A DNA stretch of 64,000 bases from Candidatus Saccharimonadota bacterium (GTDB lineage: Bacteria > Patescibacteriota > Saccharimonadia > Saccharimonadales > Saccharimonadaceae), in the NCBI GenBank assembly GCA_017962365.1, contig JAGCVL010000006.1, positions 769 to 64,768 on the forward strand, read 5' to 3'. The notes beneath the pieces are model-generated. The model worked only from the letters and a program-made list of their open reading frames with translations, ran no database searches and was not told where the DNA came from. How positions within the stretch are numbered: the first letter of the stretch is position 1; every line of letters starts with the position of its first letter. Made by a program: the position numbers and the translations under genes. Positions 2,898 to 58,232 of the stretch are shown here, in pieces.

Positions 2898-3672
2898 CTG
2901 CGGCGTGGATGACGTGATCGAAAAGACAGGTAACGGTGAGTGGACCGACACCGCCTTTTTCCGGGGTGATGGCGGCGAGGTCAGTGCGATTTCTAACTTC
3001 TGCGGCGAGGTCGCCTTTTAAGACGCCTTTATCAGAGGCGGTACCGGCATCGATGACGACGGCGCCTGGGCGCACCATAGAATCAACAATCAGCCCCGGT
3101 ACGCCCGTTGCTGTGATGATTATATCATACTGATTAAGCTTTGTCAAGTCAGAGCCACGGTGAAAGAGAGTGACGTTGTAATTTGAATCTGTAAACATCT
3201 TGTAAAGTGGGGCGCCGACGAGTTTGCCGCGACCAACGATGGCGATCTTGGCGTTTTGTAATTTGATGTCGTAGCCGGCGAGGAGCCAGTTGATGGCGGT
3301 GGCGGTGGCGGAATCGTAATTTCCGTTTTCAGAAAGGCCGTCAACGTCTTTTTTGGGAGCGATGAGGCTTGTTATTTCGTCAGTCTTATCTTTATTGATA
3401 AGAGGAAGTTGGATGATGATGCCGTCGATGGTTGGGTCGCTATTTGCGTGGATAATCTCCTCTCGGAGCGCGTCCGGTTGAACGTAGACATCCACTACTT
3501 CAATGCCGATATCTTCGCCGTATTGCTTTTTTAAATTAACATATTTGGTAATCACTGGGTTGTCGGAATCGCGAAGGATGAGGAGCTTGGGCTTTTTGGA
3601 CATTTGACGGACTTGGGCGGCCTGGCGCTCCTTAATAAAACCTGCGAGTTCTCTACCGTCTAAGATTTTCAT
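2884..3672 (-). CDS. folD: Bifunctional methylenetetrahydrofolate dehydrogenase/cyclohydrolase
   Basis: The N-terminus MKILDGRELAGFIKERQ, the GRGKLVGAPL dinucleotide-binding motif, PGGVGPLT-like GGVGPLTV and the length all fit FolD. Confidence 0.9.
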   Translation of the reverse strand: MKILDGRELAGFIKERQAAQVRQMSKKPKLLILRDSDNPVITKYVNLKKQYGEDIGIEVVDVYVQPDALREEIIHANSDPTIDGIIIQLPLINKDKTDEITSLIAPKKDVDGLSENGNYDSATATAINWLLAGYDIKLQNAKIAIVGRGKLVGAPLYKMFTDSNYNVTLFHRGSDLTKLNQYDIIITATGVPGLIVDSMVRPGAVVIDAGTASDKGVLKGDLAAEVRNRTDLAAITPEKGGVGPLTVTCLFDHVIHAAAKND

Positions 3673-4763
3673 ATTTCGTTTGGTTCCTGCTCTAATTGAT
3701 AGCCAAATTTATCATGGACGGATTTTATGATTTCGGTGCGGGCAGCAGCAAGGTCGTTGTAACTTGTGGCAGATTCATTGATGAGGACGAGGGCGGCAGC
3801 GTCGCAGACGCGGATGCCGTGGAGGAGTTTACCTTTGAGGCCGCATTGTTCGATCAGCCAGCCGGAGTTGATTTTGAGGCCGTCGTGACCGTGGTAAACT
3901 GGGATATTTTTGGCTTCGGCGGCTTCGGCTTCATCTTTGGTGAGGTAGATGTTCTTGAAAAATGAGCCGGCGGAAGCTTTTTTAGCTGGGTCGGGGAGCT
4001 TGTCGCTCCTAATAATGGAGACGATGTTGCGAATACCGGCAGGGGAGAAGTCGGTACAGTGGTGCTCATCGATGTAGCGTTCGATAGAGTTGTAAAAAGG
4101 GCGGGACATAGTGCCTGGTTTTAACTCTAGAGTGATGGAAATGACGAAATATTGGCCTTTTTTGGTGGAATTTAAAATAGAACGGCGGTAGGAAAAGCCG
4201 AAATCGGATTTTTGCAGGGTTTTAAAAGATTTATTTTTGATGTCGTAAACTTCGGCGGAGAGGAACGTGTCGGCGAGTTCTTGGCCGTAGGCGCCGATGT
4301 TTTGGACTGGAGCAGCGCCGGCAGTGCCGGGGATTTTACTCAAGGCTTCGATGCCGGTGAGGCCACGCTCGGTCGTATAGGCTACGACGGCGTCCCAGTC
4401 GGTACCACCGAGGGCCGTTATTTGGACGGGTCCTGAGGGGAGCGGGTCCTGCCGGCCCTTGTCCTCCCCCATCTTCGCGAAGCTCAGCTGGGGGTCCCCC
4501 TCCAGGGCCGTCACCCGCTCCCCTGGGACGACATCCCGAATACCGGTCATGGTGTTGCGGATGATGACGCCACCAAAGCCGTCGTCTTTTGCGATGGTGT
4601 TGGCGCCGCCACCGAGGATGTAAAACGGGAGGTTTTTTTCGGCAACAAAATCAAAAGCAGGTGTGATATCGTCTAGTTTTTCGATATCGATGACATATTT
4701 TGCGGGTCCACCAAGACGCATCGTGGTGAGCTCGGATAAGGGTACATTTTCGCGAATTTTCAT
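3669..4763 (-). CDS. murB: UDP-N-acetylenolpyruvoylglucosamine reductase carrying a 31-codon GC-rich insertion
   Basis: Motifs MKIRENVPLSELTTMRLGGPA, ILGGGAN and IPGTAGAAPVQNIGAYGQE are present. There is an ATGA overlap with the folD start. Confidence 0.9.
   Translation of the reverse strand: MKIRENVPLSELTTMRLGGPAKYVIDIEKLDDITPAFDFVAEKNLPFYILGGGANTIAKDDGFGGVIIRNTMTGIRDVVPGERVTALEGDPQLSFAKMGEDKGRQDPLPSGPVQITALGGTDWDAVVAYTTERGLTGIEALSKIPGTAGAAPVQNIGAYGQELADTFLSAEVYDIKNKSFKTLQKSDFGFSYRRSILNSTKKGQYFVISITLELKPGTMSRPFYNSIERYIDEHHCTDFSPAGIRNIVSIIRSDKLPDPAKKASAGSFFKNIYLTKDEAEAAEAKNIPVYHGHDGLKINSGWLIEQCGLKGKLLHGIRVCDAAALVLINESATSYNDLAAARTEIIKSVHDKFGYQLEQEPNEI
4436..4524. repeat. GC-rich palindromic insertion element, in frame within murB (divergent family member)
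   Basis: Terminal 12-bp inverted repeat aggggagcgggt (4436-4447) / acccgctcccct (4513-4524). Central palindrome cttcgcgaag at 4473-4482. An 8-bp direct repeat agggccgt occurs at 4411-4418 and 4504-4511. Confidence 0.75.
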
Positions 4764-5116: not shown

Positions 5117-6142
5117 ATGGCAAAGAAAGATGCGGTGGTGGAAAATGAGGGGAAGAATGACGGCAAGAATGAAGCTTTGAAGCTGGCGATGGCGCAGATT
5201 ACAAAGCAGTTTGGCGACGGGGCAATCATGAAGCTCGGGGAGACACCGAGGATGGATGTGGAACTTTTGCCATCGGGGTCGCTTTCGCTTGATTTGGCGC
5301 TTGGTGGCGGTTGGCCGAAGGGGCGGATTATCGAAATTTATGGTCCGGAGTCATCTGGCAAGACGACTTTGGCGCTTCATGCGATTGCAGAGATTCAAAA
5401 ACAGGGCGGGCAGGCGGCGTTTATTGATGCGGAGCATGCGCTCGACCCGGCATACGCGAAGAAGATTGGTGTAAATACGGCAGATCTTTTGATTTCGCAG
5501 CCAGATAATGGCGAGCAGGCGCTAGAGATTTGTGAGACTTTAGTGCGGTCCAATGCGGTAGATTTGATTGTGGTGGACTCGGTGGCGGCACTTGTCCCGC
5601 AGGCTGAGATTGACGGCGATATGGGTGATGCACAGATGGGTTTGCAAGCGCGGCTAATGTCGCAGGCGATGCGAAAACTCACGGGTATCATTTCTAAGTC
5701 GCGGGCGACAGTGATTTTCATTAACCAGATTCGGATGAAGATTGGTGTGATGTTTGGCAACCCGGAGACGACAACTGGTGGTAATGCCCTCAAGTTTTAT
5801 GCGTCGGTGCGAGTGGACATTCGGCGGATTGGGCAGATTAAGGATGGGGAAAATATCTCCGGTAACCGGACGAAGATTAAGGTAGTAAAGAATAAAATTG
5901 CGGCGCCATTTAGGACGGCAGAGTTTGACATTATGTATAATGAGGGGATTTCAAAATCTGGCGACGTGCTAGATCTTGGCGTGCAATATGGCGTACTAGA
6001 AAAAGCCGGTGCGTTCATCAAATACAATGGTGAAACTTTAGGTCAAGGACGTGAGGCGGTGAAGAAATTGTTCCGCGAAAAACCAGAGCTGATGGAAGAG
6101 ATTGAAGCTAAAGTACGCGAAAAAGCCGCAATGGAGGAATAA
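5117..6142 (+). CDS. recA: Recombinase A
   Basis: Walker [19 protein letters not shown] and [32 protein letters not shown] are present. Confidence 0.97.
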
Positions 6143-6700: not shown

Positions 6701-7466
6701 GATAAAGGATTTTAAAACGGCGAGCGGGGAGCTGGTTTTTGATTCTAAAGAGAATGATGATAAAAAAGTTGTCGGGCGTGGCAAGCTAATAATTACCGAG
6801 TTGAAGGCTGGCGTAAAGAATCCAGAACGAGTAAATGTATATATTAATGGGAAATTTTCCTTTTCGCTTGATATAGCGCAGGTGGTGGAATTTAAAATTA
6901 GGGTTGGTGCGGAAATTTCCGAAGAAAAATTGAGCGAGCTTAGGTCGGCATCGGATTTTGGGAAATTGTACCAGAGAACGCTTGAGTGGGTGCTTGTTCA
7001 GCCACGTTCAGTAAGGGAGGTGAGAGAATATCTTGCAAGAAAACTCAGGAATAGCCTTCGAGGACCTTCCGCGACTAACGAGGAGCGGTGGAGCGAAGTC
7101 CCGCCCGTAACGACGGGCCGGGACGAGCGCGTCCGAGGGGGCTATTCTGAGTTTTCTGACGAAATAATTTCACGTTTGCTTACTAAGGGATACCTGAATG
7201 ACAGGACTTTTGCGGAGTGGTATGTGGAAAATCGGTTTGTGAAGAAGGGGATTTCGAAAAAGAGATTAAAAATGGAGCTCATGAAGAAGGGGATATCGAA
7301 GGAAATTATCGACGAAGTGCTGGACGTGAGGAGTGACGAAGAAGAGATTGATAAAATGATTGCAAAAAAGCGAGCAAAATATGATGACGAAAAACTAATT
7401 CAATATCTGTGCCGGCAGGGTTTTTCGTACGATTTGGTGCGTGAAAAAGTGGCGGAGTTAAATTAA
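6687..7466 (+). CDS. recX: RecX-like regulatory protein with an extra N-terminal domain and a GC-rich in-frame insertion
   Basis: RecX-type helical repeats are present (VREVREYLARKL, ISRLLTKGYLNDRTFAEWYV, ELMKKGISKEIIDEVL, LIQYLCRQGFSYDLV). It lies in the recA neighbourhood. The start was moved to the ATG at 6687 (MDIYKIKD). Confidence 0.7.
   Translation: MDIYKIKDFKTASGELVFDSKENDDKKVVGRGKLIITELKAGVKNPERVNVYINGKFSFSLDIAQVVEFKIRVGAEISEEKLSELRSASDFGKLYQRTLEWVLVQPRSVREVREYLARKLRNSLRGPSATNEERWSEVPPVTTGRDERVRGGYSEFSDEIISRLLTKGYLNDRTFAEWYVENRFVKKGISKKRLKMELMKKGISKEIIDEVLDVRSDEEEIDKMIAKKRAKYDDEKLIQYLCRQGFSYDLVREKVAELN
7039..7158. repeat. GC-rich palindromic insertion element, in frame within recX
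   Basis: AT-rich inverted arms agaaaactcag(g)aatagcc (7039-7057) / ggctattctgagttttct (7141-7158). The GC-rich core contains the hairpin cccgt-aacg-acggg. The reverse complement of the core aligns with the der and truB copies. Confidence 0.8.
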
Positions 7467-8063: not shown

Positions 8064-8771
8064 TTATAGCACAGAAGCGTCTTTGATGTCGTATTTTCCA
8101 ACTTTGGTGCGGCGAAGAGCGGTGAGGTAGGCGCCGGTGCCGAGAGCTTTTCCGATATCTTCGGCGAGAGCTCTAATGTAAGTTCCGCTTGAGACTTCGC
8201 AACGGATTTTTAGTGTCGGATAGTTATATTCTAAAATTTCAATATTATAAATAGTGACTTCACGTGTCGGAGTTTCAAAATCTTTGCCAGCGCGAGCAAG
8301 CTTATAGGCTCTCTCGCCATTAATCTTTATGGCGCTGAAAGCTGGGACTTTTTGATTGATTTTACCAATAAAACTCTGGAGACAAGATTCAATTATATTC
8401 AGCTCGGGGCGCGTCGCTCGCTCCCGTCGCCACGGGGCTCGCGCGCTAATCCTCGCCTTGCCAGGCTCCGGACCCCCTTCGCTTGAATATAATTGAATCT
8501 CGCCTTCGGGGTCGCCGGTGGAGGAGGTGTAACCGAGTTTTAGCTCGGCGATGTATTCTTTGTCGAGCTTTAAGAATTCATTGGATTTTTTGGTCATTTT
8601 GCCAGTAAGGAGGATTAAAAGGCCGGTGGCGAAAGGATCGAGAGTGCCGGTGTGGCCGACTTTGACTTTGTGGCCGAGTTCGGTTTTTAAACGTCCGCGG
8701 ACTTTGGCGACGACGCCAAAGCTGGAAATGCCAGCGGGTTTATCAATAAGAATTATTTGATTTTCATCCAT
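8064..8771 (-). CDS. truB: tRNA pseudouridine(55) synthase carrying a GC-rich in-frame insertion
   Basis: LIDKPAGISSFGVV, the catalytic-Asp motif GHTGTLDPFATGLL and PAFSAIKINGERAYKLAR are present. The start was set at MDENQ (8771), because the longer ORF overlaps rpsO. Confidence 0.88.
   Translation of the reverse strand: MDENQIILIDKPAGISSFGVVAKVRGRLKTELGHKVKVGHTGTLDPFATGLLILLTGKMTKKSNEFLKLDKEYIAELKLGYTSSTGDPEGEIQLYSSEGGPEPGKARISARAPWRRERATRPELNIIESCLQSFIGKINQKVPAFSAIKINGERAYKLARAGKDFETPTREVTIYNIEILEYNYPTLKIRCEVSSGTYIRALAEDIGKALGTGAYLTALRRTKVGKYDIKDASVL
8385..8500. repeat. GC-rich palindromic insertion element, in frame within truB
   Basis: Perfect 17-bp inverted arms agattcaattatattca (8385-8401) / tgaatataattgaatct (8484-8500). 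The core gctcggggcgcgtc...cccgtcgccacggg...gcgctaat...gctccggacccccttcgc is about 80% identical to the der copy. Confidence 0.85.
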
Positions 8772-8777
8772 TGCATA

Positions 8778-8799
8778 ATTATAACAGATGTGATATAAT
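8778..8799. promoter_or_regulatory. Back-to-back extended -10 boxes for truB (minus strand, 8778-8786) and rpsO (plus strand, 8791-8799), each 6 nt from its ATG
   Basis: The minus strand reads TGTTATAAT-tatgca-ATG and the plus strand reads TGATATAAT-gaggca-ATG. Confidence 0.6.
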
Positions 8800-8805
8800 G
8801 AGGCA

Positions 8806-11844: not shown

Positions 11845-13692
11845 ATGGAAAAAATCCGGAATTTTTGTATTATTGCGCATATTGATCATGGGAAGTCGAC
11901 AATTGCTGATCGGATGATGGAGCTTACCGGTACGGTAGAAAAACGTGAGATGAAAGAACAGCTCCTAGACTCAATGGAGCTAGAGCGAGAAAAAGGTATC
12001 ACGATTAAACTGACACCGGTGACGATGAAATGGAAAGGGCATACACTGAACCTGATTGATACGCCGGGGCATGTGGATTTTTCGTACGAGGTATCGCGGT
12101 CGCTTCAGGCGGTAGAGTCAGCCGTATTAGTGGTAGATGCAACGCAAGGGATTCAGGCGCAGACGTTGGCAAATGTGTATCTTGCGATTGAGCAAGACCT
12201 CAAGATTATTCCAGTAATAAATAAAGTTGACTTGCCGGCGGCAGACGTGGAGGGCACGGCGGCGCAGATTATGAACTTGCTCGGATGTTCGCGCGAAGAA
12301 ATCATTGAGGCATCTGGTAAAACAGGATTCGGAGTAGATAAAATATTGGATGCGGTAATAAGTAGAGGGCCTGAACCAAGGGTTGTTTCTCGGGATGGGT
12401 CGCTTGGCCTCAGATCTTCCATTACTAAAGCATTGATATTTGATTCGTATTTTGATGATTATCGGGGGGTAGTGCTGTATGTGAGGATTTTTGAGGGGGA
12501 GATAGCGAAAAATGCAGAGATTTTAATGATGGCGGCGGGGACAAAGGGGCTGGCACTTGAAGTTGGGATTTTGACACCAAAGATGAAGTCGCAGGAGAAG
12601 CTAAGCGAGGGGCAGATTGGCTATATCGTGACGAATCTTAAGACCACGCGTGAGGCAAAAGTGGGTGATACAGTGACGTTAGCTAAGGGATTGGCGATAA
12701 AAAAGGATGAGGGCGGAACGGAAGTATTTGACACAAGTGGCAAAAAACTTGAGCCGCTACCTGGTTACAAAAATGTGTTGCCGTTTGTATATGCAGGTTT
12801 TTTCCCGGTGTCAAATGATCAGTATAAGGAATTAAAGGAGGCGATTGAAAAATTGTCGCTTTCGGATTCGGCGCTTCGGTATGAGCCGGAGAATTCACCG
12901 GTCTTAGGGTTTGGGCTTCGGATTGGATTTCTAGGTCTACTTCACATGGATATTATTAAGGAAAGGTTGGAACGGGAATTCGGATTAGATTTAATTGTGA
13001 CAAACCCGAGCACAAATTATGAAGTAGTGATGAATAATGGTGAGGTGCTAGAAATTAAATCCGCAGCGGATTTACCGGATGCGAGTGAAATTCGCGAGAT
13101 TCGGGAGCCGTGGGTAAAAGGTGAAATTATTGTACCGAAGCCAATGATTGGCAATGTACTAAATCTTATTAATGCTAAACGCGGGCATCAGACTAGCGTG
13201 TCATATATCGAAGAGCGAGCGGTGATTGATTTTGAAGCGCCGATGGCGAATCTTTTGACGGATTTTTATGACCAATTAAAATCGGCGACTAGTGGATACG
13301 CGTCGTTTAATTATGAATTAAATGGTTATCGGGCGGATGATTTGGTGCGGATAGATTTTCTGGTGGCTGGACACAAAATGGATGCACTTTCGGTGATGGC
13401 GCATCGGTCGGAGGCGGATGGAATTGGCCGCGAAGTGACAAAGAAATTAAAAGAAGTGATACCGCGTCAAAATTATGAAGTGGCTTTACAGGCGGCAATC
13501 GGGGCTAGGGTGATTGCGCGTGAGACGATTGGCGCGTATCGTAAGGATGTGACGGTAAAGATTCATACGGGCGACCGTGATAGAAAAGCGAAGTTGCTTG
13601 AAAAACAGAAGCGTGGTAAAGCGCGAATGAAGCGGTTTGGTAAAGTAGATATTCCGAGCGAAGCATTTACTGTAATGTTGAAACGTGATTAA
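11845..13692 (+). CDS. lepA: Translation elongation factor 4
   Basis: G motifs AHIDHGKST, DTPGHVDF and NKVDL are present, along with the LepA-specific C-terminus (KKLLEKQKRGKARMKRFGKVDIP). Confidence 0.95.
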   Translation: MEKIRNFCIIAHIDHGKSTIADRMMELTGTVEKREMKEQLLDSMELEREKGITIKLTPVTMKWKGHTLNLIDTPGHVDFSYEVSRSLQAVESAVLVVDATQGIQAQTLANVYLAIEQDLKIIPVINKVDLPAADVEGTAAQIMNLLGCSREEIIEASGKTGFGVDKILDAVISRGPEPRVVSRDGSLGLRSSITKALIFDSYFDDYRGVVLYVRIFEGEIAKNAEILMMAAGTKGLALEVGILTPKMKSQEKLSEGQIGYIVTNLKTTREAKVGDTVTLAKGLAIKKDEGGTEVFDTSGKKLEPLPGYKNVLPFVYAGFFPVSNDQYKELKEAIEKLSLSDSALRYEPENSPVLGFGLRIGFLGLLHMDIIKERLEREFGLDLIVTNPSTNYEVVMNNGEVLEIKSAADLPDASEIREIREPWVKGEIIVPKPMIGNVLNLINAKRGHQTSVSYIEERAVIDFEAPMANLLTDFYDQLKSATSGYASFNYELNGYRADDLVRIDFLVAGHKMDALSVMAHRSEADGIGREVTKKLKEVIPRQNYEVALQAAIGARVIARETIGAYRKDVTVKIHTGDRDRKAKLLEKQKRGKARMKRFGKVDIPSEAFTVMLKRD

Positions 13693-13710
13693 GTATGATA
13701 TAATAAGCTT

Positions 13711-14478
13711 ATGATAAATAAGCTAAAATGCAAGTTGAAACGTGGGGATACATTGATAGAAGTGACTATTGCGATCGGGATTTTTTCGATGATTGCAATT
13801 ATGGCTGTGCTAGTGGTGAATACTTCGATTTCTGGTACGCAGGCTGCACTTGAAAACACCGTAACTAGAGAAGAGATAAATACTCAAGCTGAGGCACTTA
13901 GATTTATTCAGGCAGCATATGTGGCTGATAAGAATGAAAATAATGAAGAGTCTAGTAAGTACGGTAAACTTTGGCAGGAGATGGTGAGTCTAGCTAGGGA
14001 GCTAGGGAAAGATGAGGTCGATGATGCAAATTTCTTAAATTATCGTCCTGCAACTTGTAGTGACCTGTATGGTGAAAATGGGATTAAACGGCAAGGGGCT
14101 TTCATTTTGAATGTGAGGGCGCTTGATTCGGATGATGTGGATGATATTCTAGTGTCTATTGAAAAGAAGCCGGATATTTTCCAGGCGACTACCTCGTATC
14201 CTAGAATTATATATAAATATGGTGATGGTACGGTGGACTATGGTGAAGTTTTGTATAGTCCAGCTGGTAGTGATGCGGCGATAGATGGCGTAGAGGGGAT
14301 TTATATTGTGGCGGCGAGAGATAAAAATAGCACCAATATAATTTCCGATGATGGCGTAAAACCAGCGTCGGCATTTATTGATTTTTATATTAGAACTTGT
14401 TGGTATACGATGAATGCACAGCGTCCATCGACGATTTCGACTGTGGTGAGACTTTATAATCCAGATTATCAAAACTAA
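13711..14478 (+). CDS. Type IV prepilin-like protein (N-terminal cleavage/methylation-type motif)
   Basis: KRGDTLIEVTIAIGIFSMIAIMAVLVV resembles the G-(F/T)TLIE plus hydrophobic helix signature. Confidence 0.65.
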   Translation: MINKLKCKLKRGDTLIEVTIAIGIFSMIAIMAVLVVNTSISGTQAALENTVTREEINTQAEALRFIQAAYVADKNENNEESSKYGKLWQEMVSLARELGKDEVDDANFLNYRPATCSDLYGENGIKRQGAFILNVRALDSDDVDDILVSIEKKPDIFQATTSYPRIIYKYGDGTVDYGEVLYSPAGSDAAIDGVEGIYIVAARDKNSTNIISDDGVKPASAFIDFYIRTCWYTMNAQRPSTISTVVRLYNPDYQN

Positions 14479-14500: not shown

Positions 14501-14575
14501 TGGTCTGGGATACCAGGCTCGAACTGGCGACCTCACGCCCCCCAGGCGTGCGCGCTACCACTGCGCCAATCCCAG
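14501..14575 (-). tRNA. tRNA-Pro (anticodon GGG), CCA encoded
   Basis: Hand-folded cloverleaf: acceptor CTGGGAT/ATCCCAG, anticodon stem CACGC/GCGTG, loop CTGGGGG, T-loop TTCGAGC. Confidence 0.9.
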
Positions 14576-14584
14576 TCATTTTAG

Positions 14585-14660
14585 TGGTCTGGGTGACCTG
14601 ACTTGAACAGGCGACCTCGGCGTCCCGAACGCCGCGCGCTACCAACTGCGCCACACCCAG
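14585..14660 (-). tRNA. tRNA-Pro (anticodon CGG), CCA encoded
   Basis: Hand-folded cloverleaf: acceptor CTGGGTG/CACCCAG, anticodon stem CGGCG/CGCCG, loop TTCGGGA. Confidence 0.9.
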
Positions 14661-14667
14661 AAATAAA

Positions 14668-14743
14668 TGGTCTGGGTGACAGGACTTGAACCTGCGACCT
14701 CAACGTCCCAAACGTTGCGCGCTACCAACTGTGCTACACCCAG
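14668..14743 (-). tRNA. tRNA-Pro (anticodon UGG), CCA encoded
   Basis: Hand-folded cloverleaf: acceptor CTGGGTG/CACCCAG, anticodon stem CAACG/CGTTG, loop TTTGGGA. Confidence 0.9.
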
Positions 14744-21206: not shown

Positions 21207-21338
21207 AATGCCTCCATTGGTATCATTATAGCAGATTGTGGGGGTTTGTGGTAGAGCTTATATTGACTTTTTAGGCCAAATGTGATATAATGGAAAGATA
21301 GGGGCGTAAATTAACCAACGAACAGGGGAGGTGATAAT

Positions 21339-21712: not shown

Positions 21713-21800
21713 GCCCGCTTGGCGGAATTGGTAGACGCGCTAGCTTCAGGTGCTAGTGGCCGCAAGGCTGTAAGAGTTCAAATCTCTTAGTGGGCACCAG
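21713..21800 (+). tRNA. tRNA-Leu (anticodon CAG), long variable arm, CCA encoded
   Basis: Acceptor GCCCGCT/AGTGGGC, anticodon stem CTAGC/GCTAG, loop TTCAGGT, T-loop TTCAAAT. Confidence 0.9.
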
Positions 21801-33773: not shown

Positions 33774-33860
33774 TGGTGGGCGAGAAGGGACTTGAACCCT
33801 TACGACATTGCTGTCACTAGATTTTGAGTCTGGCGCGTCTACCAGTTCCGCCACTCGCCC
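33774..33860 (-). tRNA. tRNA-Leu (anticodon CAA), long variable arm, CCA encoded
   Basis: Acceptor GGGCGAG/CTCGCCC, anticodon loop CTCAAAA, T-loop TTCAAGT. There is one mismatch in the anticodon stem. Confidence 0.85.
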
Positions 33861-39950: not shown

Positions 39951-40021
39951 ATTTTTCCCGCAAATTAATAGTTCTTATTTTTATTTTAGCATAAAAATAA
40001 AAGTTGTGTTATAATAAGCTT

Positions 40022-40960: not shown

Positions 40961-41022
40961 GTAATAGGTCTGAGCTACGATACCTTTTTGGCATTTTCTT
41001 GAAAATATGGTATAATTAAGAT

Positions 41023-42447
41023 ATGAAAAAATTACCAATAGTAGCATTGATTGGCCAGACGAATGCGGGGAAATCTTCGCTTCTTAATCGGATGGCGCGG
41101 AAAAATATTGCGATTGTAGCGAGGGAAGAGGGTACGACGCGCGATAACGTGATGGCGACGATCGATGATGCTTTTATTTTGGTAGATACGGCTGGTCTTA
41201 AAGACCCAACGGATGATTTTGAGGCGTCGATTCAGGATCAGATTCAGGATGCGATAGAAGCGGCGGATGTGATATTGGTGGCACTAGATTCTACGAAGTA
41301 TTTCGATCATCGTGATAAGAAAATTACAAAAGATGCTTTGAAATCTGGGAAACCAGTGTTTTTGGTTCTTAATAAATGTGATCTCGGCGAGTCGTTGCCG
41401 ATTGAGGAGTTTAGGGCTCTTGGTATAGCGCCAGAAAATATTTTTTATACTTCGGCAACAACGGGTGTCGGGATTAAGGAACTCAAAGCTGGGGTTCTGG
41501 CAGATATTTCTCGCTCGGGGGCGCGTCCGGCCGGCCCGTCGCCACGGGCGGCCGGCGCTAATACTCGCGCTGCCGCGCTCCGTACCCCCCTTCGCCAAGA
41601 AATATCTACCACTCCCGCTCTGAAGATTGCTTTGATTGGGCGGCCGAATGTGGGGAAGTCGTCATTATTTAATACGCTTGGCAAAAAGCAGCAGGCGATT
41701 GTGTCGAGTCGGCAAGGTACGACGCGGGATGTCAATCGGGTGACGGTGAAATATAAAGGTCGGGAGATTGAGATTTTGGATACAGCTGGACTTCGGAAAC
41801 CAGGCAAACGTGAGGTGGGGATTGAAAAGTTTTCAGCAATACGGACACTTGCGGCGATTGAGGAAGCGGATATTTGTTGCCTTTTGGTGGATTCGACCGA
41901 GCCACATTCGAAACTTGACCAGTCGCTCGCGGGACAAATTGTGGAAGCCGGGAAGGGAATTATGATGATTGTGACGAAGGCGGATTTACTTGAAAATGCC
42001 GAACCGACGAATTTTTATGGTGAAGAGAATATTGGCAATCGGACGGCGGCGGATTTCTTGCTAGACGCCCTCGAAAAGGATTATGATTTCTTGCCGTATG
42101 CGCCAGTGATACTTACAAGCTCGGAGACCGGGATGAATGCGACAAGGATTTTTGAAATGGCGCTTGAGATTGACGCGGCGCGGCATATGGAAGTAAAGAC
42201 TTCGGAGCTAAATAAGATTTTGAATGATGCGATTGTTGCTCACGCGCCGGCAGGTCTAAAAGATACTCGTCCGAAGCCGAAATATATCGTGCAGACCGAT
42301 ACTTGTCCACCGTGGTTTGTGGTGCATGGACACGAACTTGGGCTTCTTCACTGGTCGTGGAAGCGGTATTTGGAGCGAAAAATTCGGGAAAAGTACCCAT
42401 TTATTGGTACGCCAATCATGTTTTCATACCGTTCAGATGATAAATAG
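41023..42447 (+). CDS. der: Ribosome-associated GTPase Der/EngA with a GC-rich insertion in the inter-G-domain linker
   Basis: It has two G domains (GQTNAGKSS / DTAG; GRPNVGKSS / DTAG) and a KH-like C-terminus. Confidence 0.92.
   Translation: MKKLPIVALIGQTNAGKSSLLNRMARKNIAIVAREEGTTRDNVMATIDDAFILVDTAGLKDPTDDFEASIQDQIQDAIEAADVILVALDSTKYFDHRDKKITKDALKSGKPVFLVLNKCDLGESLPIEEFRALGIAPENIFYTSATTGVGIKELKAGVLADISRSGARPAGPSPRAAGANTRAAALRTPLRQEISTTPALKIALIGRPNVGKSSLFNTLGKKQQAIVSSRQGTTRDVNRVTVKYKGREIEILDTAGLRKPGKREVGIEKFSAIRTLAAIEEADICCLLVDSTEPHSKLDQSLAGQIVEAGKGIMMIVTKADLLENAEPTNFYGEENIGNRTAADFLLDALEKDYDFLPYAPVILTSSETGMNATRIFEMALEIDAARHMEVKTSELNKILNDAIVAHAPAGLKDTRPKPKYIVQTDTCPPWFVVHGHELGLLHWSWKRYLERKIREKYPFIGTPIMFSYRSDDK
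41498..41611. repeat. GC-rich palindromic insertion element, in frame within der (best-preserved copy)
   Basis: Inverted arms tggcagatatttct (41498-41511) / agaaatatctacca (41598-41611). The 87-nt core is about 80% G+C by hand count. Internal hairpins are ccggccggcccgt-cgcc-acgggcggccgg and gcgc-taatactc-gcgc. Confidence 0.85.
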
Positions 42448-44177: not shown

Positions 44178-44239
44178 TCCATTTTGACTCCTATCCCCCG
44201 TTTCTTAAAAGCGGGGGATTTTTATGGTATAATTTAGAT

Positions 44240-44755
44240 ATGAAACTAGTAGTAGGGCTTGGGAATCCAGGGGTGCGGTATAATTTTACGCGGCACAATA
44301 TAGGGTTTTTGGCGCTTGATTTTTACGCGAAGAAGCATGGTCTGGAGTGGAAAAATGAGTTGTCAGCTCTGGCGTGTCGGGAGGGCGATACGTGGTTTGT
44401 AAAGCCGCAGGATTATTATAATATGAGCGGAAAAGCGGTGGCGGAGTTTATGCGGTATTATAAAATTGCGGCGGCGGATGTTTTAGTGATTTGTGATAAT
44501 TTTGATCTTGAGTTTGGGGTTTTGAGATTCCGGTCGAAGGGTTCGGCTGGTGGGAATAATGGACTAAAATCGGTAGATGCGGCGCTCGGGACTTCGGATT
44601 ATCCGAGGCTTCGGATTGGGACGGGGAACAACGAACTGAAGACGAAGCTCGGGGCGGTGGATTTTGTATTATCGCGGTTCACAGATGAAGAGAAGGCTAA
44701 ATTGCCGGAGATTTTGGGTGCGGTAGAGGGGGAGATTGAGAAGTTTGTGCGGTGA
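44240..44755 (+). CDS. pth: Peptidyl-tRNA hydrolase
   Basis: VGLGNPG..Y..TRHNIGF and GGNNGLKS motifs are present. Confidence 0.93.
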   Translation: MKLVVGLGNPGVRYNFTRHNIGFLALDFYAKKHGLEWKNELSALACREGDTWFVKPQDYYNMSGKAVAEFMRYYKIAAADVLVICDNFDLEFGVLRFRSKGSAGGNNGLKSVDAALGTSDYPRLRIGTGNNELKTKLGAVDFVLSRFTDEEKAKLPEILGAVEGEIEKFVR

Positions 44756-44827: not shown

Positions 44828-45123
44828 GGCCCTCTAACGCTTCTCTTTCTATACCGGGAGAGACCCCGGAGCGTAAGCCCACCTCACACAAATTGGGGCC
44901 CGCCGGTTAGAGGGATTGCTAAGCCTTCGAAATTGAGTCCTTTCAAAGTGGAGGTAATACTTATAAACAACAAACCATGAAGAAATTTATTGTCCGAAAG
45001 GGTTTCAAAAGCTCGCAATTTCTGCTATACTAGTAAAGTATAGCGAAATTATAACTTATTTAGGTGCGGTGTGATATGCTTTTTGCATATCAACTGTCCT
45101 TATTATATCACAGGAGAAAAAAT

Positions 45124-46050
45124 ATGTCAACACTTTTTTCATACTTTTTTGAAAAAATCAACCAAATTGCACCCCTGGAGAGTGATTTTACAGAGGTGTT
45201 AGAGTCCATTGCGGTTAAGCCTAAAACATTGTATTATTATGGAAAAATGCCAGAAAATGTGGTAAAAAATGGGGTTTTAACGCGGCCGAAGACGGTGGCG
45301 ATTGTGGGGTCGAGGCATAATACGAAATATGGGGAGGAAGTGGCATATAAATTAGGGTATGGACTGGGAAAACGAGGTGTAGTGGTGGTGTCGGGGCTAG
45401 CTTTTGGGATTGACTCAATTGGGCATCGGGGGTGTCTGGATGCAGGTGGGGTGACGGTGGCAGTTCTGGGGACGAGGATAGACAAGATTTATCCGAAGGC
45501 GCACACGGCGCTCGCAAAGGAGATTATAGAGAAGGGTGGGGTGGTGATGAGTGAATATGGCATATCTGACAATCTGGTCGCGAAAGTGAGTTTTTTAGAG
45601 AGAAATCGGATTATCGCGGGGCTAGCTGACGTGGTGGTGATAGTGGAGGCGGCGGAGCAGTCGGGGTCCCTCAATACGGCGGCGCATGCTTTGGCACAGG
45701 GGCGGGAGGTGTTTGCAGTGCCGGGGAATATTACGAGTCCGTATTCCAGGGGGTGCAATAAGCTGATTTCTCAGGGTGCGATTCCGTATACTGAGCCAGA
45801 TGATGTACTAAGAGTGCTTTTTCCGGAGGAGTTTTTGAAGAAGCGGAAGAAGCTAAAGCAGATGGATTTATTTGGGGATACAGATGCCGAGACAGCGGTG
45901 CTTACGGCGATGGCGGCGGGCATGAGGAGTGGGGATGACATTATGAAGTGTGCGCTTTTGCCACCAGAAGTGTTTAATCAGGCGATTACGATGCTCGAGA
46001 TAAAGGGGCGGGTGAGGGCGCTTTCGATGAACAATTGGAGTTTGGCGTAA
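45124..46050 (+). CDS. dprA: DNA-processing protein DprA/Smf
   Basis: VAIVGSRHNTKYG, SGLAFGIDSIGHRG and QSGSLNTA are present. The ATG at 45124 follows a CAGGAGA SD. Confidence 0.85.
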   Translation: MSTLFSYFFEKINQIAPLESDFTEVLESIAVKPKTLYYYGKMPENVVKNGVLTRPKTVAIVGSRHNTKYGEEVAYKLGYGLGKRGVVVVSGLAFGIDSIGHRGCLDAGGVTVAVLGTRIDKIYPKAHTALAKEIIEKGGVVMSEYGISDNLVAKVSFLERNRIIAGLADVVVIVEAAEQSGSLNTAAHALAQGREVFAVPGNITSPYSRGCNKLISQGAIPYTEPDDVLRVLFPEEFLKKRKKLKQMDLFGDTDAETAVLTAMAAGMRSGDDIMKCALLPPEVFNQAITMLEIKGRVRALSMNNWSLA

Positions 46051-46100: not shown

Positions 46101-48368
46101 ATGGCTAAGAATTTGGTAATAGTAGAGAGCCCGGCGAAGGCGCATACGATCGAGAAGTATCTCGGGTCGGATTTTAAGGTGCTGGCGAGTGTGGGGCATA
46201 TTCGGAAAGATACGAAGGTTGATAAAAATACTTTTGATGTGACATATGAGATTGATCCGGGGCATAAGTCTATTATTACGGAGCTAAAGCGTGAGGTGAA
46301 GGCGGCGGACAAGATATGGCTCGCGACGGATGAAGACCGTGAGGGTGAGTCGATTTCGTGGCATCTTTTGGAGGTGCTAGGGTTGCCTGGGGATACGGCG
46401 CGGATTACTTTTCATGAGATTACGAAGCCGGCGCTTGAGGCGGCAATCCTAAATCCTAGAGCGGTTGATATGAATATGGTATCTTCGCAGCAGGCGAGGC
46501 AGACGCTTGATATGCTGGTGGGGTATGATTTGTCGGACATAGTGCGACGAAAGGTGCCGGGGGCGATTTCGGCGGGGCGGGTGCAGTCGCCGGCGCTGAG
46601 GCTCGTAGTGGAGCGAGAAAAAGAGATTGAGAAGTTTGAGAGTAAGTTTAGTTTTAAGATTTCTGGTGAGTTTATATCGGGTGCGAGTTCGATTTTCTTA
46701 GCTTCCTATGATGGAAAAGCGCCGGAAAACGAGGATGACGTAAAAGATTTACTCGCAAAACTGTCAAATGAAGAATTTACGGTGATGGATGTTGAGGAGG
46801 CGGAGGGGGTGAAGCCGAATCCGGTGCCGTTTACTACGGCGGCGCTTCAGATTGAGGCAAATGCGAAGCTTGGGTTTTCGTCGCGGACGACGATGAGCGC
46901 GGCACAGGGGCTTTATCAAGCCGGGTTGATTACATATCATAGGACAGATTCTTTGAATTTGTCTTCGCAGGCAGTGGCGGCGATGGCTGGATATATCAAA
47001 GCAAATTTTAGTGAGCAATATTTGAAGACAAGGCATTTTAAGACGAAGGATGCTTCGGCGCAAGAGGCACATGAGGCGATTCGTCCGACGGATATTACAC
47101 GGACGGCGGCTGGTAAGAATGATTTTGAGAAGAGGCTTTATCAGTTGATTTGGGCGCGGACGCTGGCGACCCAGATGGCAAATGCCAAGGTGGCGAAGAC
47201 GATGATTCGCTTGAGTCATGATTTCGTGGCGAAGGGCGAAGTGGTGGTGTTTGACGGTTTTTTGAAAGTTTATGGGAAGAGTAAGGATTTGGAGCTTCCG
47301 AGAGTAGCTAAAGGCGACGAAATGGAGTGCTTGAAGCTAACCGCGAAGCAGACTTTTGCGAAACCACCAGCAAGATATACCGAGGGGTCACTAGTGAAGA
47401 AGCTCGAGGAGCTCGGTATTGGACGGCCATCTACGTATGCCTCGATTATGACGGCGATTCAGGCGCGAAATTATGTAGAAAAGGGTGAGTCGGAAGGCTC
47501 TGAGCGCGAAGTGGTAGAGTTTGTGGCGGAAAAAGGCAATGTAGAGCGAACTTTGGTGAAAGAAAAATTTGGCGCGAATAAAGGAAAATTGATGCCGACG
47601 CCGATTGGCGAGTTGGTGTCTGGATTCCTCACGGATAATTTTAAAAATATTGTGGATTATAAATTTACGGCAAATATTGAGAAAGATTTGGACCTCGTGG
47701 CAGCAGCGAAGCTGGAACGGGTGAAGATGTTGAAAGATTTTTATGGGCCATTTCGCGATACGGTACTAACGGCAAATGGAGTAGAAAGATACAATAACGC
47801 TCGGCTACTTGGTCATCATCCTGAAAATGGCAAGCCGATTTATGCGAAAGTTGGAAAGACTGGCGGATTTATCCAGCTAGGCGACAATGAAAAAGAGGCG
47901 GGCGAGAAGCCGCAATTTGCGCCACTTCCAAAACGAAAATCTGCGAAGACGGTGACCCTGGAGCAGGCTTTGAAGCAGCTGGCTCTACCTGCACTTCCGA
48001 GAAATCTCGGCAAGGCTCCGGATGGGGCGGAGATTATCGCGGCGAATGGGCCGTTTGGGCCGTATCTTAAAGGTGGTAAATATAATATACCAATTAAGGA
48101 TTTTGACCCATATACGATAAGTTTGGAAGAGGCGCTACCGCTTTATCAGAAAAAAGTGGATTCGATGATTGCGGACTGGGGCGAAGTGCAGATTATTAAT
48201 GGTGCGTATGGGCCATACGTGAAAGGTCCTGGACGGCGCAATAATGTAAAAATTCCAAAAGATGTAGATCCAAAGACCGTGACTGAGGCACAGGCACGGG
48301 AAATGTTAGCAAATAAACCAAAAACAGCTTCGAAAACGAGGCGGGGAGCGAGAGGTAAACGAAAATGA
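46101..48368 (+). CDS. topA: DNA topoisomerase I
   Basis: It has the Toprim motifs LVIVESPAKA and ATDEDREGE and the catalytic Tyr region ITYHRTDS. The basic C-terminus lacks obvious Cys4 zinc ribbons. Confidence 0.95.
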   Translation: MAKNLVIVESPAKAHTIEKYLGSDFKVLASVGHIRKDTKVDKNTFDVTYEIDPGHKSIITELKREVKAADKIWLATDEDREGESISWHLLEVLGLPGDTARITFHEITKPALEAAILNPRAVDMNMVSSQQARQTLDMLVGYDLSDIVRRKVPGAISAGRVQSPALRLVVEREKEIEKFESKFSFKISGEFISGASSIFLASYDGKAPENEDDVKDLLAKLSNEEFTVMDVEEAEGVKPNPVPFTTAALQIEANAKLGFSSRTTMSAAQGLYQAGLITYHRTDSLNLSSQAVAAMAGYIKANFSEQYLKTRHFKTKDASAQEAHEAIRPTDITRTAAGKNDFEKRLYQLIWARTLATQMANAKVAKTMIRLSHDFVAKGEVVVFDGFLKVYGKSKDLELPRVAKGDEMECLKLTAKQTFAKPPARYTEGSLVKKLEELGIGRPSTYASIMTAIQARNYVEKGESEGSEREVVEFVAEKGNVERTLVKEKFGANKGKLMPTPIGELVSGFLTDNFKNIVDYKFTANIEKDLDLVAAAKLERVKMLKDFYGPFRDTVLTANGVERYNNARLLGHHPENGKPIYAKVGKTGGFIQLGDNEKEAGEKPQFAPLPKRKSAKTVTLEQALKQLALPALPRNLGKAPDGAEIIAANGPFGPYLKGGKYNIPIKDFDPYTISLEEALPLYQKKVDSMIADWGEVQIINGAYGPYVKGPGRRNNVKIPKDVDPKTVTEAQAREMLANKPKTASKTRRGARGKRK

Positions 48369-49134: not shown

Positions 49135-49206
49135 TGGCCTGGTAGCTATATTTTATTGATTTGGTCGACTTATGATATAATGGTAAAAAATAAGCGAGGA
49201 TTTTGT

Positions 49207-50043
49207 ATGACTGCAAAAATTACGAAAGCGATTATTCCAGTAGCTGGATGGGGGACGAGAAGACTTCCGATTACGAAGGTGATTGAAAAATCAATGCTTC
49301 CGGTAGGAAACCGACCTTTGGTGGATTATTCGGTGCAGGAGCTGATAAAAGCCGGCGTGAAAGATATTTATATGGTGGTGTCCAATGTGGAGCCGTGCCA
49401 AGTGAGGGCGTTTTATCAGGACAATTTGGCGCTCAATCGGTATTTGGTAGATAGGGGTAAAGAAGATAAGCTCGAGAAGGCAAAGACTTTGCCGGATGAT
49501 GTGAGAATGCATTATGTGGCGCAGGATCCATCGGCAAAATATGGTACGGCGGTGCCGATTGCAATGGTGGTGGAAGAATTTAAGATTGACGAACCGGTAT
49601 TGGTGTTTATGGGTGATGATTTTATTTGGAACCCAGGTGGTGAGTCGGCGGCGGAGGCGCTAGTTAAGGCTTCTGGCGGTACAGAGGCGGCGATTTTGGG
49701 CGTAGAAATTCCAAAATCTGAAGTAGAAAAATATGGCGTGTTGTCGGTAGAAGACGGTAAACTTTCTTCGGTAGTGGAAAAGCCGAAGCCGGAGAATGCG
49801 CCGTCAAATTTGATTAACGTATCAAAGTATGTAATGACGCCAGATCTTTTGAAGCGGATTGTGAAATATGTTAATGAGAATGATTTTGGCCCAACGGATC
49901 AAGAGTATATGGTGACGGACCCGATTGATGAATTCATTCGCGATGGTGGCGTGATGAAAGTGGCTGCTACGTCTGGGGAATACCTAGACGGTGGTTCAGT
50001 TGAGGGTTGGGTGCATGCAAATGAAGTTGTTTGCAAACAATAG
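49207..50043 (+). CDS. galU: UTP--glucose-1-phosphate uridylyltransferase-like nucleotidyltransferase
   Basis: AIIPVAGWGTRRLPITK...MLPV is present. The start is set at MTAKITK. Confidence 0.72.
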   Translation: MTAKITKAIIPVAGWGTRRLPITKVIEKSMLPVGNRPLVDYSVQELIKAGVKDIYMVVSNVEPCQVRAFYQDNLALNRYLVDRGKEDKLEKAKTLPDDVRMHYVAQDPSAKYGTAVPIAMVVEEFKIDEPVLVFMGDDFIWNPGGESAAEALVKASGGTEAAILGVEIPKSEVEKYGVLSVEDGKLSSVVEKPKPENAPSNLINVSKYVMTPDLLKRIVKYVNENDFGPTDQEYMVTDPIDEFIRDGGVMKVAATSGEYLDGGSVEGWVHANEVVCKQ

Positions 50044-50062
50044 TAAATAAAAAAATACAAAC

Positions 50063-50166
50063 GGTTCGCTCACGTCTGATTAAAAAAATAATTTCAGGCA
50101 GGGCTGTGCTGGTATTTCAGTACCATGCTCGCCCTGTGAAATTATTTTTTTAATCTGGTTCGCTCA
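50063..50166. mobile_element. MITE-like element: a ~78-bp near-perfect hairpin (50078-50155) flanked by the 10-bp direct repeat ggttcgctca. It probably also serves as a bidirectional terminator.
   Basis: The direct repeat is at 50063-50072 and 50157-50166. The arms gattaaaaaaataatttca (50078-50096) and tgaaattatttttttaatc (50137-50155) are perfect complements. Confidence 0.5.
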
Positions 50167-50179
50167 AAGTTTATATTTT

Positions 50180-56937: not shown

Positions 56938-58232
56938 TGAAAGTGTATATTTCGGGGATTTCAGGTACGGGGATGGGGCCTCTAGCGCTCTTTGCGGCGA
57001 ATGCTGGCATAGAAGTAGTGGGGTCGGACCTCGCCAAGGGGGCGATTTATGATGAATTAATGAGGGCGGGGATTCGGGTAAAGATTGGGGTGCAGGATGG
57101 AGAGTTTTTAAAGTCGGAGATTGATGGACTAAATTGGTTTGTGTATACCTCGGCTTTGCCGGAAAATCACCCGGAGCTTATGGCGGCGCGTGAGGCGGGG
57201 GTGAAGATAAGTAAACGTGATGATTTTACGGCATATCTCGTGGATAAACTCGGTCTTAAGATGGTGGCGGTGGCAGGGACGCATGGCAAGACTACTACGA
57301 CGGCGATGACTATTTGGGCGTGTCTGAAATTGGGCTTACCAGTGTCATATGTGGTGGGGACGACGCTTGGATTTACAGTTTCCGGGGCATATCATGATGG
57401 GGATAAGTATTTTGTGTATGAAGCCGATGAATATGATCGGAATTTTTTGAAATATCATCCGTGGTTAGCGGTTATTCCGAGCGTGAGCTATGATCATCCG
57501 GACATTTATCCAACGGTTTCGGATTACGAGGCGGCGTTTTTGCAATTTAAGTCGCAGAGTGAGATGGTGATTGAAAATACGGCTGATGGGATTGTCGGCG
57601 GCGAAGTGATGTTTTTGCCGGAAGATTTTAAACTGGCTGGTGGGGCGCGAAGGATTGATGCGGCGATGGCGGCAAATGCAGTAATGAGGATGCTAAGATT
57701 GGAGCATAATGATGGACTTGTGACTGATGATAAGAAGATGGAAGTGACTCGGATTTTAAATGAATTTCCTGGAGTGGGGAGGAGATTTGAAAAGTTAGCC
57801 GATGGATTATATACGGATTATGCGCATCATCCGGAGGAGATTGTGGCGACGATTGAGATGGCACGAGAGCAGGCGAAGATTGATGACAAAAAAGGCGTAG
57901 TGGTGGTGTATGAGCCACACCAGAATGCTAGGCAGACTGAAGTAAAGGATGGGTACCGTGAAGCGTTTGTGGGGGCGGATAAGATTTTTTGGTTACCGAC
58001 ATATCTAGTGCGGGAGCCGGAAGGGGTGCCGATTTTGTCTGCTGAAGAGCTGGCTGGTGGACTAGTGAATGAGGAAGATGTGTGTCTGGCGTGGCTATCA
58101 CGTGGGCTTGCGATAACGATTCGCGAAGAGTTGGCGGCTGGAAATCTGGTGCTTTTGATGACGGCGGGTCCGGCAGATGCATGGATGCGTAGGCTGGCGG
58201 CGGGCGAGAGCGTGGACGAGCTGGCGCACTGA
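56937..58232 (+). CDS. murC: Mur ligase family protein, MurC-like (UDP-N-acetylmuramate--L-alanine ligase)
   Basis: It has an N-terminal Rossmann-like segment (ISGISGTGMGPLA...GSD) and the P-loop VAGTHGKTTTT. MurC and Mpl cannot be distinguished by eye. Confidence 0.68.
   Translation: MKVYISGISGTGMGPLALFAANAGIEVVGSDLAKGAIYDELMRAGIRVKIGVQDGEFLKSEIDGLNWFVYTSALPENHPELMAAREAGVKISKRDDFTAYLVDKLGLKMVAVAGTHGKTTTTAMTIWACLKLGLPVSYVVGTTLGFTVSGAYHDGDKYFVYEADEYDRNFLKYHPWLAVIPSVSYDHPDIYPTVSDYEAAFLQFKSQSEMVIENTADGIVGGEVMFLPEDFKLAGGARRIDAAMAANAVMRMLRLEHNDGLVTDDKKMEVTRILNEFPGVGRRFEKLADGLYTDYAHHPEEIVATIEMAREQAKIDDKKGVVVVYEPHQNARQTEVKDGYREAFVGADKIFWLPTYLVREPEGVPILSAEELAGGLVNEEDVCLAWLSRGLAITIREELAAGNLVLLMTAGPADAWMRRLAAGESVDELAH

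Follow-up and report, generated by a model that had tools for sequence, protein, structure and literature searches.

The truB gene in a 64,000-nucleotide stretch of contig JAGCVL010000006.1 (assembly GCA_017962365.1, Candidatus Saccharimonadota bacterium; positions 769 to 64,768 of the forward strand, referred to below as the window) carries, in frame, a GC-rich hairpin element bounded by perfect 17-bp inverted arms. The same element recurs in other genes of the window and of related genomes. Our favoured reading, which we consider probable, is that it belongs to a selfish family of coding palindromes of ruminant-gut Saccharibacteria, maintained through its structure, similar in kind to the Rickettsia palindromic elements (RPEs) and with arms derived from the host. 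A GC-rich hairpin repeat in Saccharibacteria housekeeping genes is previously undescribed: no paper describing the element was found in the literature on Saccharibacteria or the Candidate Phyla Radiation, and Rfam gave no family match for the window at gathering thresholds or for positions 8300-8600 at E<=10, returning only tRNAs and one meaningless hit to a long non-coding RNA.

A structured repeat family in housekeeping genes

The arms of the truB copy, AGATTCAATTATATTCA and TGAATATAATTGAATCT (Table 1), are AT-rich and reverse-complementary at 17 of 17 positions. The inverted repeat extends to 29 nt per arm at 83% (8373-8401 and 8484-8512), which makes it the longest short-range inverted repeat returned by a repeat search of the window; in 100 mononucleotide shuffles the longest perfect repeat of this kind was usually 10-12 bp, reaching 17 bp once. 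The GC content of the core is 75%, as against 45% for the window. Folded as RNA or DNA, both strands give a stable three-way junction with z-scores of -5.8 to -7.0, single-stranded DNA of either strand taking the same shape as the RNA, and the hairpin in the sense of the truB mRNA has a folding energy of -74 kcal/mol. A closing helix pairs GGGG (8406-8409) with CCCC (8474-8477), with a long hairpin, P3, at 8410-8445 (apex CCCGTCGCCACGGG at 8423-8436) and a short hairpin, P2, at 8450-8472.

The truB product reads through the site as ...GDPEGEIQLYS-SEGGPEPGKARISARAPWRRERATRPE-LNIIESCLQSFIGKINQ..., and its homologues are annotated as TruB of Candidatus Saccharibacteria. Pfam recognises TruB_C_2 and, in two stretches, the catalytic domain TruB_N, which the insert splits. 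An AlphaFold2 model that predicts the TruB fold confidently (predicted local distance difference test, pLDDT, 83.9; predicted template modelling score 0.78) has residues 98-118 below a pLDDT of 50 and places the arms on a strand (residues 92-94) and at the start of a helix (124-132). In the alignment to Mycobacterium tuberculosis TruB (1sgv), residues 93-123 of the query stand in place of a 10-residue loop. In the model the insert is thus a disordered surface loop with a native strand on one side and a native helix on the other, and it is predicted to be compatible with the fold. Most TruB homologues have an insert at the same place with wholly different peptides, and the DNA beneath these peptides is the same element in other frames or on the opposite strand.

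The window holds three copies, in truB, der and recX, together with a remnant in lepA. They score 116.3, 105.8 and 41.1 bits, respectively, with a covariance model of the family (see below), and share a long outer stem, the closing GGGG/CCCC helix, a short P2 and a long P3 with the apex CCCGU-NNNN-ACGGG; their RNA folds have z-scores of -4.9 to -7.8. The 14-nt motif CCCGTCGYYACGGG occurs in the window at exactly three sites, which are the three copies (0.49 expected by chance). Within each copy the arms are self-complementary, and between copies they are unrelated, being CAGATATTTCT and AGAAATATCT(a) in der and AACTCAGGAATAGCC and GGCTATTCTGAGTT in recX (the latter also written GGCTATT-CTGAGTT). 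The der gene lies on the plus strand (41023-42447), and the truB core (8406-8477) and der core (41518-41589), compared on the same strand, are 76% identical over 72 nt. The lepA segment is probably, from its sequence, a deletion remnant or a decayed copy. At this site relatives have full elements in either orientation, sometimes two in tandem.

The covariance model was made from ten copies with the structure set by hand; RNAalifold on a MAFFT alignment had misaligned P2. It was applied to truB and the 10 kb to either side of it in 80 related species-representative genomes of Candidatus Saccharibacteria, mostly ruminant-gut "Candidatus Nanosyncoccus" (1.34 Mb), where it finds 97 copies. The core is about 80 nt long, ends GAGG...CCGA and forms a three-way junction when single-stranded. 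Across the alignment of the 97 copies base pairing holds in 90% of cells, compared with 63% for shuffled and about 40% for slid partners, and 39 of the 42 pairs show changes on both sides. The consensus motifs CGGAG, CGAG, AG, CCCGU..GACGGGC and a GA bulge, which are unpaired or apical, are nearly invariant. The strand reading GAGG...CGGAG...CCCGU..GACGGG...CCGA is called orientation B here and equals the truB mRNA sense in the window; in all three window copies it folds 9-15 kcal/mol better than its complement.

Insertion recurs at the same places, namely the truB loop, recX, the linker that joins the G domain of LepA to its domain II, the linker between the GTPase domains of Der, and the apex of a hairpin in the rpsO-pnp leader. 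These comparisons show that the sites are mostly permissive loops and linkers of the housekeeping proteins TruB, Der, RecX and LepA, and that relatives are polymorphic for gain and loss of the element. The recX site was used only qualitatively, as recovered from 22 of 81 loci by an expression that was too strict. Among the copies in truB, der, recX and lepA and in intergenic DNA the arms differ, whereas core likeness is 76-92%; the window der core and the truB core of a relative (L001), for example, are about 92% alike with unrelated arms.

Long open reading frames (ORFs) contain 85 of the 97 copies, 45 in sense and 40 antisense. All six combinations of orientation and frame are used (A0 16, A1 13, A2 10, B0 28, B1 8, B2 9), and a copy has a median of two to three open frames out of six, so that copies are not generally stop-free. 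The truB copy itself is open in one frame of six, the one used by truB. Freedom from stops is a filter on the copies that survive and not a property of the element. At truB the frame is kept in 81 of 81 loci in spite of some 18 insert lengths between 129 and 237 nt, although two thirds of length variants would break it were there no constraint from translation, and variants avoid stops in the frame used, with GAUGAG found where GAUUAG would give an in-frame UAG. Because the frame is kept and these stops are avoided, the element is, on this sequence evidence, almost certainly read through and translated.

These same observations bear on whether the insert might be an intron-like sequence, cut from the mRNA or bypassed by the ribosome to give a TruB without the extra peptide. 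The long stem would bring both junctions together, and PMC6649704 cites mitochondrial genes of Magnusiomyces whose GC-rich hairpin inserts are bypassed during translation. Such a sequence would be free to vary in length and to contain stops, whereas all the truB alleles are in frame and stop-free across their many lengths, TGAG replaces TTAG where TAG would be in frame, and Rfam gives no intron or ribozyme match even at E<=10; this explanation therefore seems extremely unlikely.

The original prediction, made from the letters of the window, fares well on most of these points. It had described perfect reverse-complementary arms around a GC-rich core, had read both arms as coding (EIQLYS and LNIIES) and had quoted the inserted peptide, all of which stands, as does the homology of the core with a der copy on the same genomic strand. 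Its wider claim, that truB and der contain a repeated GC-rich element in frame but oppositely oriented, is upheld by 100 copies. It had placed the insert between the catalytic domain and a later region, which is incorrect, since the insert lies inside TruB_N, and selection for stop-free palindromes, with which it considered the open frames consistent, does not agree with the single open frame of the truB copy.

Origin of the arms

Most insert-free truB loops, which are 60-69 nt long, lack complementary arms (4-7 nt, with folding energies between -1 and -9 kcal/mol). In the L026 allele the native-type loop is complete (EISPYSVESCPEE...LNILESTLQT) and exactly 99 nt have been added before LNILES, consisting of a 21-nt inverted complement of the next 21 native bases, which pairs with them through 18 Watson-Crick and 3 G-T pairs, and a 78-nt core. 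L028 and L055 differ from the close insert-free alleles L060, L061, L074 and L075 by a 111-nt indel, which comprises 16 filler nucleotides, 22 nt copied in inverted form from the adjoining downstream sequence (the native EKDVFLT codons) and a 73-nt core. The layout of L026 is also seen in the extended alleles L035, L004, L037, L024 and L069 and in L014, where the element is antisense; the extended alleles keep the native loop, and their second arm is extra sequence complementary to the codons at the helix start. These relatives show one arm to be native coding sequence and the other an added inverted copy, in agreement with the earlier proposal that one arm or both had been copied, inverted, from neighbouring native codons. 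No direct target-site duplication is present at the L026 and L028 junctions, where the duplication of the flank is inverted.

In the window the LNIIES arm is judged to be ancestral and the EIQLYS arm derived. Insert-free TruBs have L-x-x-I-E/K-S at the LNIIES position, which the 1sgv alignment puts at the helix start, and it is by homology that LNIIES is identified as the ancestral arm. The compact 129-nt allele of the window would correspond to L026 with 39 nt lost between direct repeats G(A/G)GATT (168 - 39 = 129). A neighbour-joining tree of TruB was too noisy to polarise gains and losses in general. A constant polarity between native arm and core was also considered and rejected: the native arm is at the CCGA end in sense copies and at the other end in L014. 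Because the hairpin flips in situ (see below), this polarity is uninformative.

The original prediction had noted that relatives without the core that nevertheless had both inverted arms would place the arms before the insertion. The undisturbed insert-free alleles are without arm complementarity, and the single allele with arms and no core, L020 (13-bp arms), still has 12 nt from the edge of the core (CCGAAATACCCC, found also in L013) and is therefore a deletion derivative. Similar remnants are found in L025, L027, L044 and the window lepA, showing that core deletions leave arm remnants behind.

It could nonetheless be that the arms come first, with a structure-specific recombinase or transposase, acting on hairpin tips or single strands, putting the core into the apical loop of hairpins that already exist. 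The rpsO-pnp leader, with its conserved native hairpin GGGAAGACGGCAGATAT...ATATCTGAGGTTTTCCC, would fit well, its apex being a hotspot for many copies with very different arms. So would the mini-inserts of 36 and 72 nt lying exactly in the apical loop of P3 (L003, L005, L037, L076 and L078), an insert-free allele, L074, that has a small quasi-palindrome at the insertion point, and the strand asymmetry of G-U and A-C pairs described below. Set against these, insert-free truB loops are mostly free of hairpins, the second arm of L026 and L028 is extra sequence absent from insert-free alleles, and Pfam revealed no recombinase gene among the 20 uncharacterised ORFs of the window. We consider this explanation rather unlikely overall, but an enzyme that targets hairpin tips remains a serious rival on the question of the arms.

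Inversion, strand asymmetry and mechanism

Another metagenome contributes a der gene (L147, P0122) that matches the window der at 96.4% outside the element and differs from it by 8.8% at third codon positions. The two genes are of equal length, and over 86 of 86 nt the L147 core is the window der core in exact reverse complement. Between the extended arms the 27/24-nt asymmetry is reversed, and a substitution in one of them is matched by a compensating change in its partner. It follows that the complete hairpin was inverted in situ, and it is because of such inversion that both orientations are found at each orthologous site. Judging from this pair of sequences, the der core has had its nucleotides conserved or homogenised, yet the peptide it encodes is an entirely different one. 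In another Der homologue, P0121, which is 99% identical to the window der, the element differs only at the P3 apex (ARPAVRKPRAAG in place of ARPAGPSPRAAG). Der proteins that are more distant also have this apex variant, suggesting that the apical hairpin has undergone a small rearrangement or conversion.

As inversion of the der element changes its peptide completely with the length kept, and all six frames are seen, the peptide itself might be thought useful as a variable surface loop switched by flipping in the manner of a shufflon. The proteins concerned are cytosolic housekeeping enzymes, though, and the peptides are unrelated between species and predicted to be disordered, the inserts are often lost, and it is nucleotide sequence and structure that are conserved and not the peptide. 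We give this idea very little credence.

The arms also appear to be kept complementary. In truB they covary, TTA/ATA in the window becoming TTG/ACA in L001, and the rpsO-pnp copies of L060 and L061, which have flanks about 90% identical, show some five arm differences, each matched in the other arm. Compensated changes are the pattern expected from arm-to-arm correction by template switching, a process also put forward for the coding palindromes of Nematomorpha (PMC6649704).

Mismatched pairs are distributed unevenly between the strands. In orientation B there are 141 G-U pairs and 67 A-C mismatches, and the bias is similar in copies that are sense (64:36) and antisense (60:27) to the host gene. 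Because the two agree, the bias follows the element and not the mRNA, and selection at the mRNA level was ruled out as its cause. The replication strand was likewise rejected, the truB and recX copies being 1.3 kb apart in opposite orientations. The asymmetry suggests that one defined strand, either single-stranded DNA or RNA, has to fold at some stage.

The alternative that the host keeps the element as a functional mRNA structure, whether as a ribosome pause site, placed at domain boundaries and aiding co-translational folding, or as a signal for stability or RNase III processing, is best considered here. It would account for the high stability in the sense of the truB mRNA, the strong covariation, the occurrence of copies in loops and domain linkers of Der, LepA, RecX and TruB, and a der core that is unchanged while its flanks have diverged. 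It is difficult to reconcile with antisense copies being about as frequent as sense copies, with the G-U bias tracking the element strand, with the many relatives that have no insert or have lost the core, with the presence of the same element in intergenic DNA, and with the unrelated AT-rich palindromes that occupy the same truB loop elsewhere (L050, L052, L059, L045 and L048). We regard it as distinctly improbable.

On the favoured reading of a selfish family with host-derived arms, a single-stranded intermediate of the core would take part in insertion. Once the core had been copied, fold-back (snap-back) synthesis or template switching would copy the adjoining host flank and so provide the second arm, the closing GGGG/CCCC helix being able to return a 3' end to the flank; the same template switching would later keep the arms complementary. 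Read-through would yield a disordered surface loop of about 27 amino acids. Spread between genomes at the same sites could occur by homologous recombination after DNA uptake, and genes for DprA (45064-46050) and RecA (5117-6142) are present in the window. No host function would be required, with selection only removing copies that break the frame or the fold. A more specific version, which we put forward tentatively as a possibility, is a new class of mobile element that lacks its own terminal repeats. It would build them from host DNA at every insertion, by fold-back copying of the flank primed by a structured single-stranded intermediate, DNA or RNA, of one particular strand, and would have a hairpin that flips in situ and arms kept perfect by arm-to-arm correction. 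If this were true, one insert could present different peptides in an essential protein.

Several observations weigh against the favoured reading. The der core has no substitutions in 86 nt where some 3-8 would be expected from the divergence of its flanks, and this invariance, like the excess of G-U pairs in orientation B, points to constraint or homogenisation, neither of which would be needed by an insert that was purely inert. Neither arm at the intergenic rpsO-pnp site is recognisable as a copy of the local flank. The derived status assigned to the EIQLYS arm depends on homology with extended alleles and not on a close insert-free relative. The arms of truB and recX copies are unexpectedly alike (GAGATTCAAGAATATCC and AAAACTCAAGAATGTCT, about 12 of 17) in different frames, as compared in, for example, L003:10265 with L010:11614, L012:11575 and positions 7040-7056 of the window; chance, a common preference for targets, or arms that sometimes move with the core could account for this. 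Finally, Pfam gave no candidate transposase, reverse transcriptase or nuclease among the 20 uncharacterised window ORFs.

Other features and comparison with known systems

Table 1. Positions of the truB element, its relatives and recurrent promoter-like motifs (window coordinates unless a locus is named)
Feature	Position	Strand or orientation	Basis
truB (tRNA pseudouridine-55 synthase), 235 aa	8064-8771	minus	ORF and translation, Pfam, homologue names, PDB alignment to 1sgv and 1r3e
Arm judged native, (L)NIIES, start of TruB helix	8385-8401	minus	complementarity, 1sgv alignment, AlphaFold2, insert-free TruBs
Arm judged derived, (E)IQLYS, replaces native strand and loop	8484-8500	minus	extended alleles, AlphaFold2
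GC-rich core, 82 nt, three-way junction	8402-8483		folds of both strands, covariance model, covariation, family consensus
Outer imperfect stem extension into native truB codons	8373-8384	pairs with 8501-8512	repeat search, folds
Outer imperfect stem extension into conserved GDPEGE codons	8501-8512	pairs with 8373-8384	repeat search, folds
der copy, linker between two GTPase domains	41497-41613	core on same genomic strand as truB copy	covariance model, ORF
recX copy	7040-7154	core on opposite genomic strand	covariance model, fold (-76.5 kcal/mol), Pfam RecX
Probable lepA remnant, 69 nt, peptide RGPEPRVVSRDGSLGLRSS	12361-12429	plus, in lepA 11845-13692	site comparison across 44 loci, sequence
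rpsO-pnp leader copies	L016:7615, L031:4959, L042:16917, L060:8518, L061:8607, L070:3498, L078:3856, L028:8659, L037:6530		
Extended -10 motif sites	8770-8800, 21262-21292, 39986-40016, 13696-13721, 41006-41028, 44223-44245		

Other hairpins and inserts were seen at the same sites or nearby. Unrelated long AT-rich palindromes (37-39% GC, -67 to -102 kcal/mol) occupy the truB loop in L050, L052 and L059 (210 nt), in L045 and L048 and in part of L007, with deletion remnants in L017 and L043, and the truB loop is a general sink for coding hairpins. Mini-inserts, in frame and either about 36 nt (such as AGACCGCCCCTTGGGACGCGGA..GACCCGAAGGGTC) or about 72 nt in length, lie exactly in the P3 apical loop of truB copies in L003, L005, L014, L037, L076 and L078 and of the Der homologues P0149, P0195 and P0139, and may be a second, nested mobile element. 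A further family of in-frame inserts (...AGLEFSSTSYAGTPAEPSLRDEPVG.VRNI...) is found in the Der linker (P0165, P0168, P0217 and others) and in the LepA linker (L034, L007 and L077).

In the window a long hairpin at 4405-4554 (minus strand, in ORF 3669-4763; about 73% GC, -79 kcal/mol, z-score -2.7) has no covariance model match and may represent a further type of coding palindrome. Where ORFs 49156-50043 and 50180-51898 converge, the intergenic region contains a nearly perfect hairpin of some 150 nt (50039-50191), with a folding energy of -57 kcal/mol, a z-score of -9.5 and the longest perfect inverted repeat of the window, 19 bp (50078-50096 and 50137-50155). A bidirectional terminator is one possibility for it, a further palindromic element another. 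The GC-rich islands at 45643-45711, 46532-46620, 58156-58231 and 62356-62415 were rejected as copies, having no covariance model match, and folding z-scores were ordinary for the three islands folded, a set that left out 62356-62415. In viral contigs the pattern CGGAG-N(26-50)-CCCGTRRMGACGGG gave 66 matches, none confirmed by the covariance model, and these are put down to chance.

Four to five tandem copies of a 21-nt unit, AGTCGTCCCGACCGAGGCTCA, are present at 393-497 in the first ORF (13-1380), which has no Pfam hit. An extended -10 motif of the type TGTGATATAATG or TATGGTATAAT recurs just upstream of genes and is probably the standard promoter of the organism. Three tRNA genes are clustered on the minus strand at 14504-14743, and two 84-nt tRNA genes (21713-21796 and 33777-33860), 12 kb apart in inverted orientation, are 74% complementary.

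Among known systems the element is closest in kind to the RPEs. As summarised in PMC10969869 from Ogata et al (2000, 2002), RPEs are in-frame palindromic selfish DNA in Rickettsia housekeeping genes, each family encoding a conserved peptide. Both are short palindromic repeats (about 100-150 bp) lying in frame in unrelated housekeeping genes of a host-dependent bacterium with a reduced genome; both are compatible with the protein fold and have copies that decay, and in neither is the mobilising mechanism known. Unlike RPEs, the present family uses all six frames, giving unrelated peptides, and has terminal arms that are host-derived and specific to the locus, not part of the repeat. Its core is a three-way junction and not a simple hairpin, it shows flipping in situ and nested insertions, and its host phylum is Saccharibacteria.

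The coding palindromes of Nematomorpha, for which a parasitic character, together with template switching or arm conversion, has been proposed (PMC6649704), likewise have perfect inverted repeats with both arms protein-coding, dynamic gain and loss, and arm identity that is apparently kept up by an active process. They are mitochondrial, reach 284 bp and have no foreign conserved core, whereas the arms described here are short (10-25 bp) and flank a mobile GC-rich core.

Small repeats without coding capacity but with hairpin potential include MITEs (miniature transposable elements with inverted repeats), repetitive extragenic palindromic sequences (REPs) and the palindromes of IS200/IS605. In the systems formed by REPs and their associated tyrosine transposases (RAYT), and in IS200/IS605, recognition is structural rather than by sequence. 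Unlike in MITEs, the terminal inverted repeats of the present element differ between copies and the flank duplication is inverted, not direct. Unlike REPs and bacterial interspersed mosaic elements, about 88% of copies are inside ORFs, with only 12 of 97 outside long ORFs. Palindromes of the IS200/IS605 type have hairpins recognised on one strand and insert beside a fixed tetra- or pentanucleotide; the present element has two hairpins and a strand asymmetry, and no constant target motif was seen at its junctions. No MITE-type transposase or TnpA was seen by Pfam among the 20 uncharacterised window ORFs. Self-splicing or spliced introns (group I, group II and bulge-helix-bulge) were rejected, the frame always being kept and no Rfam match being found.

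Mitochondrial GC clusters and double-hairpin elements are GC-rich, hairpin-forming mobile mini-elements of more AT-rich genomes, sometimes in coding sequence. The present element resembles them, and the 'byp' elements, in each of these respects. The byps of Magnusiomyces, as cited in PMC6649704, interrupt the frame and are bypassed by the ribosome. In contrast, the frame is always preserved here, and the hosts are bacteria and not organelles. We know of no evidence for host-derived arms in GC clusters, double-hairpin elements or byps.

After RPEs, the family would be a second, independent and large-scale case of selfish DNA within essential protein-coding genes. Its occurrence in the Candidate Phyla Radiation, which is also reduced and host-dependent, suggests that the phenomenon goes with such a lifestyle. 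The inserts add disordered loops to the universal marker proteins TruB, Der, LepA and RecX, and the GC-rich islands and strong hairpins may affect how metagenomic genomes of Saccharibacteria are assembled, aligned and placed in phylogenies. The origin and persistence of coding palindromes was a question left open for RPEs and the Nematomorpha palindromes, and to this the host-derived arms, the clean series of filled, empty, extended, flipped and deleted alleles, and the strand asymmetry provide unusually direct clues.

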